DNA of 34,983 bases, from the IMG/VR virus record IMGVR_UViG_3300045988_118832; one strand, written 5' to 3'. Positions 23,997-32,206 of the stretch are shown here, in pieces. Below the pieces are notes generated by a model. The model searched no databases. It was given only the letters and a program-made list of their open reading frames with translations, and was not told the origin of the DNA. Source of the stretch: a virus. Its lineage: Duplodnaviria > Heunggongvirae > Uroviricota > Caudoviricetes. A program made the translations under genes and the position numbers. Position 1 is the first letter of the stretch; the number at the start of each line of letters is the position of its first letter.

Positions 23997-24023
23997 CAAA
24001 AAAGCCCCTGCAAGGCAGGGGCT
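23997..24023 (-). terminator. Intrinsic terminator ending the early operon after the GemA-like gene
   Basis: Minus strand reads AGCCCCTGC-CTT-GCAGGGGCT followed by TTTTTTGTGG; starts 7 nt after the GemA-like stop. Confidence 0.65.
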
Positions 24024-24029
24024 GATTCT

Positions 24030-24443
24030 TTATTGTTTACGTGCTGCTCTGGCTCGTTTTCTGGCGTCTTTTGTCAGCGCCACCATCACCCCGAACAGCT
24101 GATCATCTGTCAGCCATTCGATCACATGTTGCTTATACATGTGAGATGCCAGTCCTTCCGCATACGCCCAGGAACGACCGGCATCAGCCAGCAACGCCTC
24201 AATTTTGGATAATACCGATTTTCTGCTCATTGCAACACGGGGGCGGCGACCTTTACCGGCGGGCGCTTTGCGCGGAAATCCCTGTTCGTGCATGTATTCC
24301 CGGATGATGCGCAGTTCATCGAGATTGCAGCGTGTGGTGCTGGTTTTACCGGTCAGGCGGGCCAGCGTCTGACGATAAAGGGCATCATCCCACCCCAGAT
24401 ACGCCTGACCGGCTTTAATGGCTCCGATCATCTTTTTCAGCAT
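24030..24443 (-). CDS. GemA-like protein (Mu gp16 family)
   Basis: ATG at 24443 with GAGGA upstream; MLKKMIGAIKAGQAYLGWDDALYRQTLARLTGK... resembles the GemA/DUF1018 N-terminus as I recall it; followed by a terminator. Confidence 0.65.
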   Translation of the reverse strand: MLKKMIGAIKAGQAYLGWDDALYRQTLARLTGKTSTTRCNLDELRIIREYMHEQGFPRKAPAGKGRRPRVAMSRKSVLSKIEALLADAGRSWAYAEGLASHMYKQHVIEWLTDDQLFGVMVALTKDARKRARAARKQ

Positions 24444-24693
24444 GTTTGTTATCCTCAAAACGCACGGTAAAACGTGAAACACCAATCCCCGACAGGAACG
24501 CGGCGGCACGGTCAAGAGACAGCCACGTCTTGTAATCGCCACGGCGTTCCTGTAGAAAATAGGACACCCCGGCGCGGCGATTCACAGCGAAGAGGTGATA
24601 CACACCATCGAACCGCTGCACGACGAACTCATCCACGCCACCGCTTTCAGCCTGCTGCCGGAAGGCTGCCATTCCGATTTGTTCAATTTTCAT
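24415..24693 (-). CDS. Hypothetical early protein (93 aa)
   Basis: ATG at 24693 (MKIEQIGMAAF...); a perfect 10-bp inverted repeat lies immediately upstream. Confidence 0.4.
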   Translation of the reverse strand: MKIEQIGMAAFRQQAESGGVDEFVVQRFDGVYHLFAVNRRAGVSYFLQERRGDYKTWLSLDRAAAFLSGIGVSRFTVRFEDNKHAEKDDRSH

Positions 24694-24696
24694 AAT

Positions 24697-24741
24697 GACC
24701 AAAACATTACTTTTGGCAGACCAAAACACATGTTTTGGTCT
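24697..24741. promoter_or_regulatory. Operator-like site: perfect 10-bp inverted repeat AGACCAAAAC-ACAT-GTTTTGGTCT plus a third half-site
   Basis: Palindrome at 24718-24741; extra GACCAAAAC at 24697-24705 overlaps the start region of the 93-aa gene. Confidence 0.45.
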
Positions 24742-24847
24742 GCATTTGATTACCATTTAAACAACTCGCGAAATCAGGAACGTCGAGTTACGGTGATGGC
24801 TTTCATCGTGTTGTTGCTCCGTGATTCAGAAAATTCCATATCAAGCC

Positions 24848-25258
24848 TCAGTATGTGAAATAGACAGTTGCCACGCCGTTATAGTGATCAAACGACACGG
24901 CGTTTACCTCATAACTGGCCGGGAGCTTCGAGCCAAGAACGTATCCGGGCCACGTTTTCCATGGAATTTCTCTGCGCTCACTATCGCCATATACCGTACA
25001 TCCCAGTGAGCCTACAGCTTCATTAGAACGCGTGCCGCACGTTATAAATCCCAGATTTTGCTTACTGCTCTTAATGGTGATTGGGTGAACGCTGGCTGAT
25101 GCATTAGCAGCACGCTGTGCCTGTTGGTTTGCGATATTCGCAGAGTTCGCAGCAGCTACAGCAGCCGTAGTCGCGGCGGTAGAGGCTACAATAGCTGCTG
25201 AAGCATGCACTTGTTGGGTAATTGTCAGCAATGCCGCCACAAAAACCATTTTCTTCAC
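24848..25258 (-). CDS. Secreted protein with signal peptide; candidate moron
   Basis: GTG start with AAGGAGG 6 nt upstream; MKKMVFVAALLTITQQVHA signal-like N-terminus, Ala-rich linker, Cys-containing C-terminal domain. Confidence 0.55.
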   Translation of the reverse strand: MKKMVFVAALLTITQQVHASAAIVASTAATTAAVAAANSANIANQQAQRAANASASVHPITIKSSKQNLGFITCGTRSNEAVGSLGCTVYGDSERREIPWKTWPGYVLGSKLPASYEVNAVSFDHYNGVATVYFTY

Positions 25259-25270
25259 CTGGCACCTCCT

Positions 25271-25450
25271 TTACATACCGTGATTTTTCCAGCGGTTTTG
25301 GGCTGCGCTTCTGTTTCGCCAGACACCGTAAAAACGAATAGAGGACCACTCCCTAAAACCAAGATATCTATAGCGAACAACAAGCCGATTTGAGATACGG
25401 ATAAGCTGTCCGGGTTTTGCTATCAGCAGTCTTGCTTTACGGTTTTTCAT
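25271..25450 (-). CDS. Small basic protein (59 aa), hypothetical
   Basis: Not in the ORF track (<60 aa). ATG at 25450 with AGGAG 9 nt upstream; stop abuts the SD of the secreted-protein gene. Confidence 0.35.
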   Translation of the reverse strand: MKNRKARLLIAKPGQLIRISNRLVVRYRYLGFREWSSIRFYGVWRNRSAAQNRWKNHGM

Positions 25451-25454
25451 CGTT

Positions 25455-25643
25455 TCATTCTCCTGTATTTACCACTGACTCTGCACTGTCAGCCCTGCGG
25501 CGCGCCTGAAGTTCCAGCATTGCGGCCCGGAAATCCTGCCACCATACCTCATCGGCAACGGGGGTGTTCCGATCCAGCACCTTGTCCGCATCGGCAATCA
25601 GTCTGGCCAGGCTCTTATCGCTTATTCTGGTTTGCTGGTTCAC
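25455..25643 (-). CDS. Hypothetical protein (62 aa)
   Basis: Overlapping stop/start with the upstream ORF. Confidence 0.35.
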   Translation of the reverse strand: MNQQTRISDKSLARLIADADKVLDRNTPVADEVWWQDFRAAMLELQARRRADSAESVVNTGE

Positions 25644-25864
25644 TGCGCCGCCTCCTGTTTTGCCACTTTAAACGCCCGTAACATCGGGACCCTCTTACCG
25701 TAGATGACGGTTCTCATTAAAAGGCCTCCATCACTCTTATGGTGCACTTCAGGGGCCACAAACAGCGCCGCATCCACAACCCGACAATAGCGACGGAACT
25801 CCCAGAACCAGCAGGAAATAGTGATAACTGCGGTACCATTGTGTTCATAAAATTCAATATTCAT
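25640..25864 (-). CDS. Hypothetical protein (74 aa)
   Basis: Overlapping stop/start with neighbours. Confidence 0.35.
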   Translation of the reverse strand: MNIEFYEHNGTAVITISCWFWEFRRYCRVVDAALFVAPEVHHKSDGGLLMRTVIYGKRVPMLRAFKVAKQEAAQ

Positions 25865-26088
25865 TTGCAGTTAAACCTCCTTTTATGGCGTTCTACGGCG
25901 GCTTTCATGGCGTTGTGCACGGTTCTTTTAATAATCCGGCGTCCCGCACTGTCATAGAACCGCCACCGGGAAGCCCCCGGATATCCGGGGAACTCAACCG
26001 CTGCGCTACCGTCATCCATCCTGTATTCGTGGCGTTCTCCGGGCGGCTGGTATATTGCTTCGGTAACACTGAGAAGTTTAAAAGCCAT
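25861..26088 (-). CDS. Hypothetical protein (75 aa)
   Basis: Starts 3 nt after the upstream gene. Confidence 0.35.
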   Translation of the reverse strand: MAFKLLSVTEAIYQPPGERHEYRMDDGSAAVEFPGYPGASRWRFYDSAGRRIIKRTVHNAMKAAVERHKRRFNCK

Positions 26089-26090
26089 CG

Positions 26091-26801
26091 TTACACCCTC
26101 CCCAGTGCCAGCGTTTTGTTGCTCTGACCATTAACCCCCTGATGCAGTCTGGCGTTTTTCCCGGCGATAAAACCGGCTGTAGCGGCAGACTCTGCACCCC
26201 GGCACGCTTTAGCGGTGCGCATATCCCCGTCGCGCAGTCCCTTGGTGCTGTGCAGGTTCTTTCTGTAAAGCTCAAGGCGGCTTTTTTCTTCCGGGGAGAC
26301 GTCATACACCGCAATGACATCACGGGCACCAAAGACCCAGCCTTCGCAGAACTGGTCGCCACGGGCCACCCGCGTGGACGGGCCGCAACGTTTGCAGTGT
26401 TTATCCTGATATTTCTTGCGCTCTGCCATCATCTGACGGGAAAGCACATCAAACGCGTAGGCCGCGATTTCCGGGCGGCTGTCAGGACCATAAAAACGAA
26501 CGTAACGTTTGAGTGAACCAGAAGCCCGGTATTCGCCGGAGATGTAACACTCGACACCGAAGGCTTTACAGACCAGGTCACACAGGATGTGCATATAACG
26601 CGGCGGTGTACTGGCATCACTCGGCGCGCCCGCGCTGGCAGCGTCCTGAATGTCGAACAATTCCGCGTCGTTTTCGCTGATACCATGCTGGCGCATATAA
26701 GCCTGGGCTTTTGCAATAGCGTTAGCGGCTTCTTCCGGGCTTGATGTCCCTCTTGCAAGGCGTAACAGCTTTTTAATTTTGGCGATGTATTTATTTTTCA
26801 T
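26091..26801 (-). CDS. DUF2786-like protein with Cys-rich C-terminal region
   Basis: 236 aa; MKNKYIAKIKKLLRLARGTSSPEEAANAIAKAQAYM... matches the DUF2786 pattern as I recall it; C-terminal HCKRCGP...FCEGW suggests a metal-binding module. Confidence 0.55.
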   Translation of the reverse strand: MKNKYIAKIKKLLRLARGTSSPEEAANAIAKAQAYMRQHGISENDAELFDIQDAASAGAPSDASTPPRYMHILCDLVCKAFGVECYISGEYRASGSLKRYVRFYGPDSRPEIAAYAFDVLSRQMMAERKKYQDKHCKRCGPSTRVARGDQFCEGWVFGARDVIAVYDVSPEEKSRLELYRKNLHSTKGLRDGDMRTAKACRGAESAATAGFIAGKNARLHQGVNGQSNKTLALGRV

Positions 26802-26814
26802 GGTCGTCTGAACC

Positions 26815-26997
26815 TCAGCATCCTGAATTCTGAATTACGCAACTTCCGGCACGGCCTTCAGGAACGTGGGGAGTTCGTTCTGGCTGCGGTACTGAATGAG
26901 CATCTGCTGTCGATTGAGAACTGGTCGCAAGACGATTAAAACAAACGATTGTCAGATTAATTTCGCGGGCGAACTTTTTTTGCTTTGCGATATTCAT
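26815..26997 (-). CDS. Hypothetical small protein (60 aa), low confidence
   Basis: ATG preceded by GGAGAG and the repeated hairpin unit; composition unconvincing. Confidence 0.25.
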   Translation of the reverse strand: MNIAKQKKFAREINLTIVCFNRLATSSQSTADAHSVPQPERTPHVPEGRAGSCVIQNSGC

Positions 26998-27072
26998 AAA
27001 TAAACTCTCCCTGACTCAGGCGTAAGCCAGCCCCGGCGGGTTTACGCCATATACAAATAAAATTAAAAACAG
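26995..27072 (-). repeat. Hairpin-plus-RBS repeat unit, copy A
   Basis: Minus strand TGTTTTTAAT...GGCGTAAACCCGCCGGGGCTGGCTTACGCC...GGAGAG..ATG; about 65 bp shared with copy B. Confidence 0.5.
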
Positions 27073-27077
27073 ACTTA

Positions 27078-27629
27078 TTAACTACGACGTTCAGTTTTCC
27101 GGTAATGACGGTCAACAGATTTAACGAACGCCTTCACATCACGGGAAATCGAATCCAGCGGATAATATTCATCCAGTAGTTCCATTCCACTGAATCGAAT
27201 CTGAAAAAAATCAGGCTTATCTTTATATGACTCCATCAGGTCAATAAACCGCAACTGACGCGGGAGGGATTCCTGCACGCCTGAAATAGTGAGCAAATCA
27301 TCTTCAAGGATGTATGCGAGGTCTTCCATATCCTTACAGTCAGACAGCATGGTTATTCTTGTCAGTATGTTCCGTGTGGCGATATACAGCGCTGCTGTGT
27401 CATTCGCCATCATGGCGAACAAATCCCCCTGAATATACGCCCCGCTACTGGCCACAGCATTCCCGGCAATCTGGGCATCAAGCACCACATCCATAAAATT
27501 ACCCGGTGCTCCCAGACAGCCCAGCAAGGATGACGCCCATAACGTTACATTGGTTAACTTCTCAGATGAACGGGTGGCAAAACCTTCAGGAGTAACAATA
27601 AAATCCCAGACTTTATCTTTCATATACAA
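27078..27629 (-). CDS. Hypothetical protein (183 aa), low-GC cargo gene
   Basis: ATG with AAGAGGA upstream; by-eye GC on sampled lines is about 40-45%, clearly below the structural genes; bracketed by two copies of a ~65-bp hairpin-containing repeat. Confidence 0.5.
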   Translation of the reverse strand: MYMKDKVWDFIVTPEGFATRSSEKLTNVTLWASSLLGCLGAPGNFMDVVLDAQIAGNAVASSGAYIQGDLFAMMANDTAALYIATRNILTRITMLSDCKDMEDLAYILEDDLLTISGVQESLPRQLRFIDLMESYKDKPDFFQIRFSGMELLDEYYPLDSISRDVKAFVKSVDRHYRKTERRS

Positions 27630-27697
27630 ATCCTCTTGATTCAGGCGTAAGCCAGCCCGGCGGGTTTACGCCTGTTTTAAATAACAATTAAAAACAA
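27627..27697 (-). repeat. Hairpin-plus-RBS repeat unit, copy B
   Basis: Same hairpin (one C fewer in the loop) and flanks, directly upstream of the 183-aa gene start. Confidence 0.5.
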
Positions 27698-27703
27698 ATT
27701 AAA

Positions 27704-27895
27704 TTAATGCGGTGCTTTCAGTGTTTCGATTTTAACGAAATAAGGCTCGACATTAATTTCAACCACACAACCACATTTAAAATCTCTGGCAGGTGAAACG
27801 GTTTTCACCACACGACCACCACGCAACGCCGGATGTGCAGTGTGCATGAAGCGAGTCCCTACCGGATACTGCTTATTAAAGTTCTTCGCATTCAT
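27704..27895 (-). CDS. Hypothetical protein (63 aa)
   Basis: In-series with neighbours; no recognisable motif. Confidence 0.35.
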   Translation of the reverse strand: MNAKNFNKQYPVGTRFMHTAHPALRGGRVVKTVSPARDFKCGCVVEINVEPYFVKIETLKAPH

Positions 27896-28109
27896 GGCGT
27901 GGCCTCCAGCCCTTCAGGTGAGCGTTAGCGCAGAACTCCGCACGATGTTCAGCCCAGATGCGGCGCAGGGTGCTACACGGGCTTTGCGCTGCCTTGCGCC
28001 ACAGTTTTTCTGCCTCATCATAATCGCCGCGTTGTTCTGCTCTGGATGCACCCAGCGAATACGCCGCGCAACGATTTCCGGCTCTGTACTCTTTGATATC
28101 CTGATGCAT
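27876..28109 (-). CDS. ANR-like small regulator (78 aa), tentative
   Basis: ATG at 28109, 2 nt after the upstream stop (MHQDIKEY...); ...GDYDEAEKLWRKAA...RRIWAEHRAEFC resembles ANR-family proteins by memory only. Confidence 0.35.
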   Translation of the reverse strand: MHQDIKEYRAGNRCAAYSLGASRAEQRGDYDEAEKLWRKAAQSPCSTLRRIWAEHRAEFCANAHLKGWRPRHECEEL

Positions 28110-28110
28110 G

Positions 28111-28755
28111 TTAAACCCCTGCAATATCAAGCGGGATTGCGCGGTATTCATCAGAATCACCAACGCGCTCATACACACGAATATAGCTCTTGCTGCCAAT
28201 CACCTGGACGGCTTCACCAATCAGCATCATGGCGTTATTCCAGCGTTCGTCCTCAATTTCGAGGCGACGCAGGGCCAGAACGCGCCCTGTGTTAATGTTG
28301 CCTTCCTTGTCCGTGCTGAATGCCTCGCTAATGATGGCTTTAATTTCAGGGCGCGCACCTTCCGTCCAGTCAGCCAGGCAATCATCAATCAGCGACTTCG
28401 CGGTCTGAATGCGTTCATCAAACGCGATACGGTCCTGCATGGCGCGCTGAATCTTGTATCGCCCGTCAAAGCTGTAAAGCGTGATATTGCCTTTTTTGCC
28501 GCCTTTCACAGCGCCGTATTTCTCCGCCGACAGGTCAATAAATGCCTGGATATCACCAAACGCACGCAGTTTCAGTTCCCGCAGTGAGGCGGAGGCAGCA
28601 ATCACCATCTCCACAAGCTCACCGACCAGCTGCTCGCGGTCGCGGTCAATATCTTTGATAAGGCTTTCAGGTGTCATTACGCCACGGGCATCCACCCAAT
28701 AACCTTCAGGCGCTTGAGTTTTCGTGTATTGCTTAACTTTATTTTCAGTCGTCAT
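28111..28755 (-). CDS. Conserved Mu-like early protein (DUF3164-like by recollection)
   Basis: 214 aa ORF in the semi-essential early region. Confidence 0.5.
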   Translation of the reverse strand: MTTENKVKQYTKTQAPEGYWVDARGVMTPESLIKDIDRDREQLVGELVEMVIAASASLRELKLRAFGDIQAFIDLSAEKYGAVKGGKKGNITLYSFDGRYKIQRAMQDRIAFDERIQTAKSLIDDCLADWTEGARPEIKAIISEAFSTDKEGNINTGRVLALRRLEIEDERWNNAMMLIGEAVQVIGSKSYIRVYERVGDSDEYRAIPLDIAGV

Positions 28756-28784
28756 AATTAAATTACCTCAGTGATATTTACAGA

Positions 28785-29000
28785 TTAATGTGTGTTATGT
28801 GCGCGAGGCGCAACGTTTTCAGAAAAAAGATTCACGCCGTTATAGTCATTTCTGAGCGTTTCCTTGATAACATCATGTAATCTTGTTGCCACCTGAAACT
28901 CCTTTTCGGAAGCTCCGTCCTCCGAATAACTCCCCGTGGTCTGGGTTAAAACACAGCCTTTTTCATCGGTATAGATAATTACTTCTAATTTAACCGCCAT
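28785..29000 (-). CDS. Hypothetical early protein (71 aa)
   Basis: In-series on the early strand. Confidence 0.4.
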   Translation of the reverse strand: MAVKLEVIIYTDEKGCVLTQTTGSYSEDGASEKEFQVATRLHDVIKETLRNDYNGVNLFSENVAPRAHNTH

Positions 29001-29012
29001 TCTGATTTCCTC

Positions 29013-29252
29013 TCATTGCCATACGACGGTACAGCCGTCGATACAGGACGTTTTAACCACGCGGCGCAGGCCGCTGAATGTCTGAACGATTTCCGTTACC
29101 GGCCATACAGGACCACCCACAGGCGGGCAGGCATAAACCACAGGTAAACGGTGATGCTGCCCCGTTACGCGACCGCCAGTGGTATGGATAGCCACACGGG
29201 CACGGGAACGGACGGCATTAATGGCCTGCTTTTCCATCATTTTGTTCTCCAT
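29013..29252 (-). CDS. Hypothetical early protein (79 aa)
   Basis: ATG overlaps the stop of the MuB-like gene (TGATG-type coupling). Confidence 0.4.
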   Translation of the reverse strand: MENKMMEKQAINAVRSRARVAIHTTGGRVTGQHHRLPVVYACPPVGGPVWPVTEIVQTFSGLRRVVKTSCIDGCTVVWQ

Positions 29253-30145
29253 CAGTGAATTAACATTTCTGCGAATTTATCTATGGCCTGCACACTGACC
29301 GGCGCATCGCTGATATCGCAAATCCGGTACACACCGCGCGCCAGTTTGAACAGGCGGCGGGCATTACCCAGCGAGCGCGCGTAAAGCGCCTCGCTGATTT
29401 CCGGTTCTGCTGCTTCCGGCATCAGCCCGGTGGCTATCTGGTTAAAATCTTCCTGCGCCAGCGTGTCGCCCAGGTTAAGCGCCAGCGCCACGCGGCTGTA
29501 TAACTGCGCAAATTCACCACGACGCCCCTTGAGATTAATCAGAAGACGAGGCATACCCGCCAGGACAACCCCGATACCAGCTTTATCATGCAGACGGCGC
29601 AGAACCTCCAGTGCGCGATAGGGGAGCAGTTCAGCTTCGTCCACCATCAGCAGACGACCGGAATCACGCAGTTCGCGCACACAGGCATCAATCAGTTCGT
29701 GAATGTTGCCGCGAACCTTTACCCCCAGCTGGCGGCACAACTCCTCAAGCAGTGTCCTGGCTGTATAGCCCGGGTCAGCCTCAATCAGGACCGCATCCCG
29801 GTTTCTGGCGGCGTATTCACGCAGAATCATTGTTTTGCCAAGGCCAGCTGCGCCATACAGCACACAGATTTCACATTCCAGGTGAGCGTAGGCCAGCACC
29901 TCCAGTCCTTTGGCAGCCATACCAGTGGTCACAAACTTTGCTTTAATACGGCGGCTGTTTTCCTTTTCCCGCTCACGGGTCACAAAGGCAGAAATGCGTT
30001 CTTCAATATCAGCCATATCGCCCTGATATTTACCCTGCAAATACTGGTTGATAACGGCGCTGCTACGACCAATTGCACGGGCGACGTGGGTCTGCGTATA
30101 GCCGCGACGGGCCATTACGTCATTTAATTGCGTAATTAAACTCAT
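29252..30145 (-). CDS. MuB-like transposition ATPase / target DNA activator
   Basis: 297 aa; N-terminal HTH-like region then Walker A-like LYGAAGLGKT and Walker B-like LLMVDEAE; directly downstream of the transposase. Confidence 0.85.
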   Translation of the reverse strand: MSLITQLNDVMARRGYTQTHVARAIGRSSAVINQYLQGKYQGDMADIEERISAFVTREREKENSRRIKAKFVTTGMAAKGLEVLAYAHLECEICVLYGAAGLGKTMILREYAARNRDAVLIEADPGYTARTLLEELCRQLGVKVRGNIHELIDACVRELRDSGRLLMVDEAELLPYRALEVLRRLHDKAGIGVVLAGMPRLLINLKGRRGEFAQLYSRVALALNLGDTLAQEDFNQIATGLMPEAAEPEISEALYARSLGNARRLFKLARGVYRICDISDAPVSVQAIDKFAEMLIH

Positions 30146-30163
30146 AATTAAATACCTTTTAAA

Positions 30164-32206
30164 TTAACGGTTGTTTGTGCCGTTTTTCTTTAAATTGCGC
30201 TCGCGTTCAGATGCGAATAAATAAAGTTCTTCTTTTTCCTTTTTCTCCGGGCGCTCCAGACCAAATCCAAAATTAAACTCAGATTTCTGCGTAATAGCCG
30301 GGGTAAGCTCGCGTTTCGCCTCTTCGATTTTCTGCGTGGCCCGTGCAATGCGGCCTCTGGCGCGTTTCTCCTGCTGCTGTTCGATAACAGCTTTCGGGAA
30401 CGCATCAACCTTATTACCGTTCCAGATGGCATCGCAGATATAAGAACCGTCCATCCGCCTGACAATCACGCTGTTTGCGTCGTGAATGTCGTAACAAACC
30501 CTGACTTCATTTCCGTGCTCTGCTGCCAGTTCTGTTGAGAAATAGATGTTTCTGAATAACACCACTTCACCGCGTCGCACCGTGCAGATGCTTTCCGGTC
30601 GGAACATTTCATGCAGTTCTTCCGGCGACAGCATGTCGATTTCAGCTTTCTGCTCCTTTATCAGTTTCCGGCGATACGCTGCCGGGCTGTAATGTTCACC
30701 ATCCTCTTTGCGGGGAAGGCTGCTGTGTGGCCGGTTGTTATACCGTTTCACCTCCAGCTCTATTGCGGCCATCAGTTGCTCAAAGGTGGGAACTTCTCCC
30801 ATAGCCTGAACCTGCCGCTTTGTCAGCTCTTTCCCTTTGTGGGTGGCCTTAATTGCTGACTGTGTGATGCGTTGCTGCATCATCACCGTTTCCTTGTCTG
30901 CATTTTTTGAGCAGTACGTCTGGAAACTCAGAGCCACATCTTTGGGTATTCCTTTGTTTGCTCGTTCTATTACCCCGCGCCCCTGCGGGTTACCAGGTAT
31001 CCCCGTGTGATGCTCCACACCCAGTCGGGGCAGAATCCCGGTAATATCGGCATCAAGTACCTGGTTTTTTTCACCACCCCCGTTATCGGAGTAATAAATC
31101 AGCGGTATCCCGTGTTGTGACATGCCATGACGCAATGCATCAGCAACGGCCACTACGTTCTCCGACAGGGACAGCGACCAGCCCACAATAAAGCGTTGCC
31201 CTGCATCCATAACCAGTGTCACTTCTGGCCGGAATGTATTCCCGGTGGCAGGGCTGAATGCCATCAGTTTCATACAGTGACCATCCCCGACCCATACCGC
31301 ATTAACCGGTAATGTGCTCCAGTCGCGCCGCACAAAGGGATTGAGCGAACGCCAGGCTGAACCGGTGGAGCGGAAACGCTCTTTAACAATCACCGGGACG
31401 CTGCTTAACACCCGTCTTACTGCGTGAACTGAAGGCAGTGCCGCCAGGATTCCCGCATCGTTCGCGTGTTTTTCATGCCACCAGGCTGAAAACTCGCGAT
31501 ACGCATATTCAATGGTCGGGCGCTTCCATGAGCGATAGAACATAAAGAAATCGCTCAACCACCAGACCTGCTCCCACGGTGTTCCCTTATGATGACCGGG
31601 AGCCAGTAACGCCAGTAACTGATTGGCATCACCGCGCGCCATCAGCCAGGTGGAATACCATTCCTGTAAACATCCCCAGCTGACGCCAGTTCGCTTACCC
31701 TGTCTGGCGTTGGCAGTACCTGCGGCCTCGATAATACGCTCGGGCAATGCCATCTGACGAATACCATCAACGATGTGTTTTACTGCTGCCGTCCTGGACA
31801 TTCCGGCGTATTCACGCAGTTTATGCACTTCGGTAGCCAGCAATATCCGCGCATCAGCGATGGCCTTTTGCTTGTCGGTCAGTGCCTGAACTTCGCGTAA
31901 TGCCAGCTCCGGGCATTTGACCATCACTTCCAGTTCATCGCGAACGGCGACGTTTTTAACTGCCTTCTGCTCAACCACGGCGGGCAGTTGTGCATCTTCC
32001 AGGACCTGATGAGTCAGGCGCTTACGTAAAACTTTCTGCGCTTCAGCGGGTAGGCAGTCGATGTGATACTCGAATGCTTTGGTACCTTCACGCTTGCGCC
32101 TTAATTCAGGTTTATTTTCAATTACACGATCTAGACGCGCCCTGACATTGTGTTCACGTGTTGGTAGCCCTCCAATGCCAGCACACTCTTTTGCTGTAAT
32201 CCACAT
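30164..32206 (-). CDS. MuA-like DDE transposase
   Basis: 680 aa; N-terminus MWITAKECAGIGGLPT... parallels Mu A (M.W...KECA..GLP); position after the ner-like gene. Confidence 0.9.
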   Translation of the reverse strand: MWITAKECAGIGGLPTREHNVRARLDRVIENKPELRRKREGTKAFEYHIDCLPAEAQKVLRKRLTHQVLEDAQLPAVVEQKAVKNVAVRDELEVMVKCPELALREVQALTDKQKAIADARILLATEVHKLREYAGMSRTAAVKHIVDGIRQMALPERIIEAAGTANARQGKRTGVSWGCLQEWYSTWLMARGDANQLLALLAPGHHKGTPWEQVWWLSDFFMFYRSWKRPTIEYAYREFSAWWHEKHANDAGILAALPSVHAVRRVLSSVPVIVKERFRSTGSAWRSLNPFVRRDWSTLPVNAVWVGDGHCMKLMAFSPATGNTFRPEVTLVMDAGQRFIVGWSLSLSENVVAVADALRHGMSQHGIPLIYYSDNGGGEKNQVLDADITGILPRLGVEHHTGIPGNPQGRGVIERANKGIPKDVALSFQTYCSKNADKETVMMQQRITQSAIKATHKGKELTKRQVQAMGEVPTFEQLMAAIELEVKRYNNRPHSSLPRKEDGEHYSPAAYRRKLIKEQKAEIDMLSPEELHEMFRPESICTVRRGEVVLFRNIYFSTELAAEHGNEVRVCYDIHDANSVIVRRMDGSYICDAIWNGNKVDAFPKAVIEQQQEKRARGRIARATQKIEEAKRELTPAITQKSEFNFGFGLERPEKKEKEELYLFASERERNLKKNGTNNR

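Follow-up and report, generated by a model that had tools for sequence, protein, structure and literature searches.

A conserved intercistronic hairpin unit at a variable accessory-gene slot of enterobacterial Mu-like prophages

Results

Two hairpin units in the early region

We analyzed a 34,983-nucleotide stretch of tailed-phage DNA, referred to here as the window. On its minus strand we found two direct-repeat units of about 80 nt each, at 27619-27703 (unit 2) and 26995-27077 (unit 1), which lie in the variable, semi-essential early region of a Mu-like prophage (Table 1). Both units have the same layout, consisting of a stop codon, an AT-rich tract, a GC hairpin of 29 or 30 nt, a Shine-Dalgarno (SD) sequence and an ATG, and they could be aligned from the stop codon of the upstream gene to the SD sequence and ATGAA. 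This alignment bears out the initial annotation, which had described a shared hairpin-plus-RBS unit in two copies. The window contains exactly two copies of the hairpin, both on the sense strand, and no match was expected in shuffled sequence. The element is a single hairpin of 13 pairs that is able to fold on either strand. The 10-bp stem described initially holds for the plus-strand reading, where it includes one G.T pair, but not for the sense strand, where the same position is an A.C mismatch. The hairpin of unit 2 is the p63-proximal, ancestral copy, and its AT tract is represented in relatives by three phased TTTAAA/ATTAAA blocks.

Table 1. Positions of the hairpin units and neighboring genes in the window
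Feature	Position	Strand	Remarks
p63, 63-aa gene	27704..27895	-	conserved, nearly always directly upstream of the hairpin; predicted small SH3-like beta-barrel
AT-rich tract, unit 2	27673..27703	-	begins at the p63 stop codon
Hairpin, unit 2	27644..27672	-	29 nt; GGCGTAAACCCGCCGGGCTGGCTTACGCC; 65 bits with model R1
Leader from hairpin to the 181-aa gene	27624..27643	-	SD AAGAGGA at 27631-27637; flanks unstructured by Alifold
p181, 181-aa cargo gene	27078..27623	-	orphan; PGAP CDS in locus L001
AT-rich tract, unit 1 (duplicated copy)	27049..27077	-	begins at the p181 stop codon
Hairpin, unit 1	27019..27048	-	30 nt; GGCGTAAACCCGCCGGGGCTGGCTTACGCC; 67 bits
SD-like GGGAGAG followed by ATG, 3' of unit 1	26995..27018	-	start of a spurious 60-aa ORF
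5'-truncated remnant of a 72-aa gene	~26806..26939	+	intact at L003 3189-3407
DUF2786/DUF7168 gene	26091..26801	-	conserved downstream border of the slot

Genes next to the units

Each unit had been thought to sit directly 5' of a gene start. This is the case for unit 2, which precedes the 181-aa gene p181; PGAP places its start at ATG 27623 and not at TTG 27629, from which a 183-aa ORF had been read. It is not the case for unit 1. The 60-aa ORF that follows it (26815-26997, minus strand) runs antisense across the remnant of the plus-strand 72-aa gene, is unannotated in a near-identical RefSeq record and matched no family, and we rejected it as a gene, contrary to the initial annotation. That unit 1 of the window precedes no real gene is a point against the RNA role that we favor below. 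The ATG region 3' of unit 1 may be a relic of the start of a Lar-like 59-aa gene found there in relatives, because both begin ATGAATAT. Compared with L003, a locus in which the 72-aa gene is intact, a 168-bp deletion in the window took the start of this gene together with its upstream region.

The p181 protein belongs to PHROG 7741, a family listed as function unknown, and neither Pfam nor PADLOC gave a match. Profile searches of the PDB gave no match either. Homologues were found in E. coli only, at 85% identity or more, and an exhaustive phmmer search returned one real cluster and one mucin-binding repeat protein, a match that we judged spurious. The AF2 model is all-helical and of low confidence (pLDDT 51). 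Since none of the Pfam, PADLOC, PHROG, PDB profile and homologue searches revealed a link to immunity, exclusion or anti-defense, the proposal that this protein is such a factor found no support. Our scan of the minus strand detected no promoter-like or terminator-like site on either side of p181, which is co-oriented with the surrounding operon, and we therefore rejected p181 as a moron (a promoter-gene-terminator insert); the plus-strand 72-aa gene of L003 is more moron-like. The GC content of the 181-aa gene is 46%, compared with 54% for the window, and to this extent the low-GC island noted initially is real. The claim is weak, however, because p63, which belongs to the conserved core, has 44% and one further early gene has 42%.

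Conservation of the hairpin

The initial annotation had proposed a search for the hairpin in related prophages. The hairpin was present just after p63 in 76 of 79 usable related viral loci from IMG/VR that were anchored on DUF3164. A search of 185,579 species genomes yielded 22 stretches, with a Mu-like early-operon context confirmed in 20 of them; all 22 genomes are of enterobacterial genera, including Photorhabdus, Xenorhabdus, Yersinia, Edwardsiella, Pectobacterium and Citrobacter. Among complete E. coli genomes, 59 of 5,426 carry the unit, in one to four places each, and the places inspected all belong to this prophage family. When the region was compared by megablast with 50,697 phage records, nothing matched. 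A distant search yielded short, partial hits only; one was a true copy, in phage VW-6B, and the other, which lies ahead of orf33 in the P2-like phage PsP3, resembled the hairpin in a single arm. In more distant DUF3164 phages (Pseudomonas JBD18, Burkholderia vB_E433 and Vibrio 1.028.O) the hairpin is absent, and the genes are either tightly packed or separated by unrelated intergenic hairpins. Literature searches returned no paper on the hairpin sequence and nothing relevant on stem-loops in Mu-like early operons.

Among 60 non-redundant units, the mean pairwise identity of the hairpin was 85%, compared with 45% and 40% for the 40-nt flanks on its two sides, and identity of the flanking proteins fell to 40-55%. 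The distance from hairpin to start codon was 13-34 nt, most commonly 18-19 nt, and the flanks are predicted to be unstructured. These comparisons indicate that the hairpin is an old, position-locked element. Its inner stem covaries, and compensatory changes occur in the outer stem of diverged hairpins (GGCGTGA/TCACGCC; GGCGCG/CGCGCC in L121; GGCGCAG/CTGCGCC in L002). In L097 an unrelated GC hairpin occupies the same spot. Compensatory changes in the stem, together with non-homologous hairpins and ribozymes (see below) at the same place, suggest selection on structure. We also compared the two strands. RNA of the plus strand folds more stably in 26 of 36 variants, and the wobble evidence (G.U versus A.C) is mixed, with 17 cells allowed on the sense strand only and 38 on the antisense strand only, 28 of the latter at one position.

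Across genera, almost nothing changes in the outer 7-bp stem or in the G-rich loop, with one compensatory and two G.U changes among 36 variants. This constancy of sequence exceeds what a purely structural hairpin needs and hints at a sequence-specific partner. The hairpin could thus be an RNA operator at which a protein, either the p63 barrel or a host factor, controls translation or stability of the downstream message, as Mu Com does on mom or as T4 RegA does. In nearly every locus 33-60 nt separate the p63 gene from the hairpin that follows it. The p63 product is predicted to be a small beta-barrel, a fold often used in nucleic-acid binding, and a p63 paralogue was found as cargo in the slot described below. 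However, in L139 the hairpin directly follows DUF3164 in the absence of p63, L097 has p63 yet an unrelated hairpin, and diverged hairpins retain the structure but not the sequence. We consider an RNA operator unlikely.

Tests against known element classes

What comes after the hairpin on the sense strand, UGAAUCAAG or UGAGUCAGG, is no U-tract, as had been noted initially, and our scan for intrinsic (Rho-independent) terminators flagged neither strand. A terminator or attenuator could still act as a weak sense-strand pause that separates transposition genes from distal early genes, or as a plus-strand block against antisense transcription, for example from the inserted 72-aa gene. In favor are the stability and high GC content of the hairpin, its better folding on the plus strand (z of -3.2 and -5.1) and the T-rich sequence that follows it there (TGTTTTAAAT or ATTTTTAAAA), with a partial T-run after unit 2 only. 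In L003, moreover, an intact gene on the plus strand runs toward unit 1, and the PeSLs (promoter-early stem-loops) of T4-type phages work as terminators (PMC2839356). Against this, most relatives have no plus-strand gene to terminate, the plus-strand 72-aa gene has its own small hairpin and T7 run closer to its stop codon, and at the corresponding position relatives have a sense-strand ribozyme. Termination therefore appears improbable.

A scan of 24000-31000 detected no early promoter of sigma-70 consensus at either unit, the best hexamers found by eye matching at 3-4 of 6 positions, and a promoter inside the AT tract was ruled out by the scan and by hand alignment. The spacer is itself palindromic, and in diverged copies both arms change together, which makes a double-stranded DNA operator with fixed half-sites unlikely. 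The unit does not behave as a host dispersed repeat of the REP/BIME or ERIC type, since copies are few and the E. coli copies inspected lie in this prophage family. Nor does it resemble an integron cassette: no integrase is annotated in the 7-8 kb loci, whose genes are Mu A, Mu B and early genes, the attC cores RYYYAAC/GTTRRRY are absent from the hairpin, and the copies lie 5' of genes. Read by eye, the unit has a loose resemblance to a lambda-type nut site (nutL; yCUUUAAAnAU and a hairpin), and no N-like protein was identified.

The slot between p63 and DUF2786

The gap between p63 and the DUF2786 gene, which we call the slot, ranged from 97 nt (empty) to 1531 nt and held zero to three cargo genes from at least eight unrelated families, with one to three hairpin copies. 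A single hairpin was kept in 33 empty-slot configurations. Because it is present even when the slot is empty, the unit is a conserved element of the phage backbone and not, as had been assumed initially, a feature of the cargo genes. Many slots with a single cargo gene have one hairpin only, showing that a copy is not needed before every gene. The only hint of function in the slot comes from the 59-aa cargo gene of relatives, whose product has a sub-threshold match to the restriction-alleviation protein Lar.

We then compared close relatives in E. coli. The prophage locus L004 equals L001, which is near-identical to the window, minus 624 bp comprising p181 and one unit, and every flanking protein of the two is 100% identical. 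Absent from otherwise identical prophages, the 181-aa gene is dispensable cargo, in agreement with the initial view of non-essential cargo in a variable Mu-type region. Among these relatives every indel has the hairpin as one border. Some duplicated copies extend into a neighboring gene, taking in the 3' end of p63 in L018 and the 5' end of p181 in L042, as is typical of unequal crossing-over. These comparisons point to the site just 3' of the hairpin as a hot spot for the gain, exchange and loss of accessory genes.

The same borders and duplications would be left if the unit had no RNA function and were a recombination scar, a homology patch or a slippage-prone hairpin hitch-hiking with cargo exchange. 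But the single hairpin has been retained in empty slots and in different genera, although identity of its flanks has dropped to about 40-45%, and the compensatory stem changes and the non-homologous structures in the same place favor a selected structure. We regard a mere scar as quite improbable.

Hammerhead ribozymes at the homologous slot

More distant Mu-like phages (L228-L231) carry type II hammerhead ribozymes (RF02276) at the homologous slot, after DUF3164 and before DUF2786/GemA. They scored 47-71 bits against a gathering score of 37, lie on the sense strand, number two per locus and occupy the gap between stop codon and SD sequence. One hammerhead of L230 lies between a small gene and the DUF2786 homologue, and in L231 and L229 a variable 134/135-aa gene is flanked by two hammerheads. 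Tandem hammerheads of prophages are known to flank variable genes, and processing of long transcripts has been proposed for them (Perreault et al. 2011, PMC3088659). The hammerheads and the unit of the window are both repeated sense-strand RNA elements between a stop codon and the next SD sequence and start codon, and both flank single genes of changing identity in long polycistronic phage transcripts. The presence of hammerheads at the same slot, flanking variable genes, supports by analogy a putative intercistronic role of the unit in mRNA processing or insulation. In contrast to the hammerhead, the unit is a single hairpin lacking a catalytic core, and cleavage would need a host RNase.

At the gathering threshold, the whole window had no match in Rfam, RF02276 included; at E<=10 over 26950-27750 no ribozyme family matched, the best hit being Lnt RNA with 26.5 bits against a gathering score of 55. 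It is thus very improbable that the unit is an unrecognized self-cleaving ribozyme or a degenerate hammerhead, although it takes the same slot and short GC strings, CCGGGGC among them, are common to it and to hammerhead stem III, since one hairpin provides neither the three-way junction nor the CUGAUGA/GAAA core.

Discussion

We propose that an enterobacterial clade of Mu-like prophages has in its early operon a conserved intercistronic module, the unit described here, which acts as a recombination joint in DNA and as a segment divider in RNA; we give this reading about an even chance. An ancestral copy would have stood between the p63 and DUF2786 genes, with accessory genes entering just 3' of the hairpin. 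The comparison of prophages indicates that the near-identical 30-65 nt of the unit serve as the recombination joint, so that multi-gene slots acquire extra copies. Recombination between two copies would excise the gene between them, and the second copy of the window would have arrived with the 181-aa gene. We infer these events from their end states.

At the RNA level, where a shared control element had been suggested initially and seems plausible to us, the module would split the long early transcript into segments. A host endonuclease, for example RNase E, might cut in the AU-rich single-stranded flank, and the hairpin would then cap and protect the new RNA end and prevent upstream structure from involving the next ribosome-binding site. 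By analogy, the unit probably helps to process or stabilize the long early mRNA, and the type II hammerheads of related phages would achieve the same segmentation by self-cleavage. A further, tentative possibility is that the hairpin module is a functional replacement for a type II hammerhead insulator, dependent on a host RNase or protein, which doubles as a portable cassette joint by which transposable phages could capture and shuffle accessory genes that lack promoters, with no need of a dedicated recombinase.

Perreault et al. 2011 (PMC3088659) did not settle how intercistronic ribozymes serve phages. That the same homologous slot contains a plain hairpin in one clade but a hammerhead in another offers a natural comparison on this question, and if the replacement reading is true, a self-cleaving ribozyme and a simple processing hairpin have been exchanged at this slot in evolution. 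The sequence landmark GGCGTAAACC...CTTACGCC after p63 marks the slot of accessory genes across a widespread family of Mu-like prophages in enterobacteria, and the unit provides a temperate-phage example of repeat-mediated gene shuffling, as in the PeSLs of T4-type phages. If its RNA role is true, the unit would be usable as a compact natural insulator part.

Comparison with known systems

Intercistronic stem-loops set segmental mRNA stability in papBA, in malEFG (REP) and in the puf operon, as do RNase III sites in the early region of T7. Like these systems, the unit places a stable hairpin beside AU-rich single-stranded RNA, between cistrons of a long operon and at the border of two functional blocks. 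It differs in having a stem that falls short of the length of a classical RNase III site, and from host REP elements in that its copies, in the places inspected, occur only within this prophage family.

In layout the unit agrees with the PeSLs of T4-type phages, in which a stop codon is followed by an AT-rich region, a G/C stem-loop, an SD sequence and a start codon (PMC2839356). PeSLs are likewise repeated before ORFans in plastic regions and border indels among close relatives, and genes are lost or relocated when copies recombine (Arbiol et al. 2010, PMC2839356; Comeau et al. 2014, PMC4122927). Unlike PeSLs, the unit contains no sigma-70 consensus promoter, is present in one to three copies at one locus instead of about 50 per genome, resides in a temperate transposable phage, has a hairpin sequence that is conserved across genera, and is not expected to have terminator activity on the sense strand.

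The slot also resembles the regions of genome plasticity of Pseudomonas Mu-like phages (Cazares et al. 2014, PMC4378225) and the semi-essential early region of Mu, where accessory genes occupy fixed positions between core genes. A word search of Cazares et al. turned up neither a hairpin nor an intergenic element in connection with the plasticity regions. Unlike those regions, the slot described here has as its joint a conserved sequence element.

Two copies of a hairpin unit in the early operon

The early operon of this Mu-like E. coli prophage lies on the minus strand. The RefSeq prophage L001, 99.9% identical to the window over the queried region, carries in order the Mu transposase, AAA ATPase (B), small ORFs, DUF3164, an ANR-family protein, p63 (a 63-aa gene), the 181-aa gene, DUF2786/DUF7168, small ORFs, GemA and Mor. 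The repeat proposed in the initial annotation proved real and is biologically meaningful: two minus-strand units could be aligned over a stretch that opens with the upstream gene's stop codon and closes with the Shine-Dalgarno (SD) sequence and ATGAA, with the layout AT-rich tract, hairpin GGCGTAAACCCGCCGGG(G)CTGGCTTACGCC, TGA(A/G)TCA, SD sequence and ATG. No further hairpin copy was found in the window, where none is expected by chance, and no Rfam family matched the units. As had been stated, the hairpin is not a standard terminator; the sense strand lacks a U-tract 3' of the stem, and a site scan flagged no promoter-like or terminator-like site at either unit.

Coordinates of the features in the window and in related loci
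Feature	Sequence	Position	Strand	Remark
Hairpin, unit 2	window	27644-27672	-	
Hairpin, unit 1	window	27019-27048	-	
72-aa gene, 3' two-thirds	window	~26806-26939	+	
72-aa gene, intact	L003	3189-3407	+	
ANR-family gene	window	27876-28109	-	two positions upstream of hairpin
Gap after B ATPase gene	window	29240-29252		
Gap after B ATPase gene	L001	5542-5925		~370 bp longer
110-aa gene	L001	5580-5912		annotated
Gap upstream of ORF preceding gemA	window	24694-24847		154 nt
Palindrome GCAGACCAAAACACATGTTTTGGTCTGC	window	24697-24743	+	strong; terminator-like
Second unit, fused	L042	731-763		
PsP3 look-alike	L126	1489-1541		upstream of orf33/DUF2732
Type II hammerheads	L228	4435-4499, 4805-4875	sense	RF02276
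Type II hammerheads	L229	4078-4148, 4560-4631	sense	RF02276
Type II hammerheads	L230	3419-3489, 4165-4234	sense	RF02276
Type II hammerheads	L231	3431-3501, 3910-3979	sense	RF02276

Elsewhere in the operon, the gene that PGAP names as ANR-family (AraC negative regulator) gave only a weak TPR-like match in Pfam. The interval from the B ATPase gene to the small ORF that follows it differs in length between the window and L001, and may be a second variable spot judging from this pair of sequences. The intergenic gap near gemA holds a palindrome flagged on the plus strand.

The hairpin is a conserved element of the prophage backbone

The unit occurs in 59 of 5,426 complete E. coli genomes, at 1-4 places each, and all inspected places lie in this Mu-like prophage family; this shows that it is no repeat of the host. 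Scanning IMG/VR for the exact pattern returned 41 loci. To avoid the bias of such a scan, a second set of 80 loci was fetched by way of their DUF3164 protein (64-100% amino-acid identity), and the hairpin lay a few hundred bases downstream in 76 of the 79 usable ones. A one-genome-per-species scan gave 22 stretches, from genera including Photorhabdus, Xenorhabdus, Yersinia, Edwardsiella, Pectobacterium, Citrobacter, Kosakonia and Trabulsiella. All 20 with checkable flanking genes showed the Mu-like early operon context and, with one exception, a hairpin 33-60 nt after a p63 homologue. Related prophages, where the initial annotation had proposed looking for the hairpin, thus do carry it, as does the isolated phage VW-6B.

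Among 60 non-redundant units, mean pairwise identity was 85% in the hairpin vs 45% and 40% in the 40-nt flanks, and the next start codon followed at 13-34 nt, mostly 18-19 nt. Identity of neighbouring proteins fell to 40-55%. The hairpin is a conserved intercistronic module of the backbone. A one-armed look-alike, TGGCGTAAACCCGCCGGG...TAAATTCAGGAGG followed by ATG, was seen in the P2-like phage PsP3; it scored 27.5 bits with the hairpin-unit model R1, lacks the 3' arm, and may be either a remnant of exchange with Mu-like phages or a coincidence.

Across 36 distinct hairpin variants, 83% of cells paired. The inner stem carried double changes (G-C to U-A; C-G to G-C or A-U), and the outer seven pairs were near-invariant, the exceptions being a single change of A-U to G-C and two G.U changes. 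In more diverged copies both arms were altered together; the third unit of L002 and L003 reads GGCGCAG...CTGCGCC before an unchanged downstream leader, the hairpin of L121 reads GGCGCG...CGCGCC, and in L097 the place is taken by an unrelated GC hairpin. The double changes, the joint alteration of both arms and the unrelated hairpin of L097 indicate selection for a hairpin at this point, and in the enterobacterial clade the sequence of the hairpin is under unusual constraint as well. RNAalifold predicted the hairpin alone, leaving the AU tract and SD unpaired. The hairpin can fold on both strands, a G.U on the plus strand being an A.C mismatch on the sense strand, and neither wobble pairs nor folding energies among the variants discriminated the functional strand.

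The unit borders a variable cargo slot

The stretch separating the stop codon of p63 from the start codon of DUF2786 measured 97 to 1531 nt among the loci. Slots of 97-124 nt, with the hairpin directly 5' of DUF2786, were seen in 33 configurations. The control element had been tied to the cargo genes; its presence without cargo contradicts this.

Filled slots held 1-3 genes, from these families: the 181-aa protein, along with a 188-aa protein distantly related to it; DUF7448; two further proteins, one of 125 aa (with the motif CPMCG) and one of 88 aa; a CxxC...CxxC zinc-ribbon protein of 59 aa (58-61 aa), MNILLDS... (L147, L132, L145, L079, L013, L130, L080), which matched the restriction-alleviation protein Lar below threshold (PF14354; E 7e-5, 23.4 bits vs a cut-off of 28.6); a 71-aa p63 paralogue, MSGFIKKMTAEQFN... 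(hhalign probability 90%), after the hairpin in L016, L021, L081, L086 and L137; and a 149-aa protein (L096). By eye, the N-terminal part of the last resembles the 71-aa p63-like protein and its C-terminal part the 88-aa family.

Multi-gene slots contained 2-3 hairpin copies in a single shared orientation, and the hairpin bordered every indel among close E. coli relatives. L004 encodes flanking proteins all identical to those of L001 and lacks exactly 624 bp, the 181-aa gene plus one unit; its single hybrid unit joins the left flank of unit 2 to the right flank of unit 1. Some duplicated copies include a gene end, that of p63 (3') in L018 and that of the 181-aa gene (5') in L042, as expected from unequal crossing-over. 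These indels, the 624-bp difference and the carried-along ends argue for a role as a recombination joint, a putative DNA-level role that is well supported by comparison. On the sequence comparisons, the module marks the cargo slot and would also mediate it. In L042 and L049, the second unit is followed by a duplicated leader and first six codons (MKDKVW) of the 181-aa gene, fused to unrelated sequence, which directly records an unequal recombination between units.

Genes behind the units

Each unit had been placed 5' of a gene. This stands for unit 2, which lies before a real gene, of 181 aa in the annotation, with its ATG at 27623; it fails for unit 1, where the 60-aa ORF, with no annotation or family match, is not credible as a gene. 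That ORF is simply an open frame antisense to the remnant of a plus-strand 72-aa gene, whose start and upstream region were removed from the window by a 168-bp deletion. Some E. coli relatives keep the gene intact, with a further 168 bp at the 5' end including the start; its protein has no Pfam match, and 3' of it lie a small hairpin and a T7 run, the gene converging on the early operon. The first 8 nt of the Lar-like cargo gene, ATGAATAT, are identical to the start of the spurious ORF, suggesting that the E. coli lineage once carried this gene.

The supposed low-GC island is weakly borne out: the 181-aa gene is modestly low (46% vs 54% for the window), but conserved early genes are equally low or lower (p63 44%, another 42%). 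The 181-aa protein belongs to PHROG 7741, a family with no assigned function, has no Pfam, PADLOC or PDB match, and gave a low-confidence all-helical model, none of which backs the immunity, exclusion or anti-defence role first suggested; such a role is a guess from its location. The protein was confined to E. coli at identities of at least 85%, and an exhaustive homologue search added nothing real. P0021, a 173-aa E. coli protein annotated DUF1804, is 86% identical to the 181-aa protein over 54% of the length of the latter, which suggests that elsewhere the cargo gene has become part of a fusion or a recombinant. With fair confidence, p63 was predicted as a small SH3-like barrel with generic structural neighbours only.

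Hammerhead ribozymes occupy the same position in distant relatives

In more distant relatives (DUF3164 ~60% identical), four loci, L228-L231, carry two type II hammerhead ribozymes each (47-71 bits vs a gathering score of 37), which occupy all of the space between stop codon and SD. The order in L230 is DUF3164, a 77-aa gene, hammerhead, DUF2786 homologue, hammerhead and GemA; L231 and L229 have another, variable gene (134/135 aa) between the hammerheads. In other relatives (L219, L221 and L223-L227), DUF2786 abuts DUF3164, with neither gap nor cargo. The arrangement in L228-L231 is that of Perreault et al. 2011 (PMC3088659), in which tandem hammerheads flank variable prophage genes, including ardA, the proposal there being that they cut long transcripts of the phage into mRNAs of gene length.

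By position and layout, the window's unit is an analogue of these hammerheads without the catalytic core, and from this analogy we infer that it may act on the early mRNA. A stable hairpin with an AU-rich single-stranded tract beside it is a suitable substrate for a host endonuclease, for example RNase E. Such an enzyme would cut the early mRNA in this tract; the hairpin would then protect the RNA end so formed and leave the following ribosome-binding site without structure.

Comparison with known systems

The searchable literature contains no mention of the hairpin sequence. Three known systems come closest to the unit and its slot. Pseudomonas Mu-like phages have fixed regions of plasticity resembling the cargo slot (Cazares et al. 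2014, PMC4378225); searching that paper by word turned up neither a hairpin nor an intergenic element. Tandem hammerheads in prophage operons are alike in slot and layout and differ in chemistry. The PeSLs of T4-type phages share the layout of stop codon, AT-rich stretch, stem-loop, SD and start, and the same role in ORFan shuffling; unlike the unit described here, they contain a strong promoter and number ~50 copies per genome (PMC2839356, PMC4122927).
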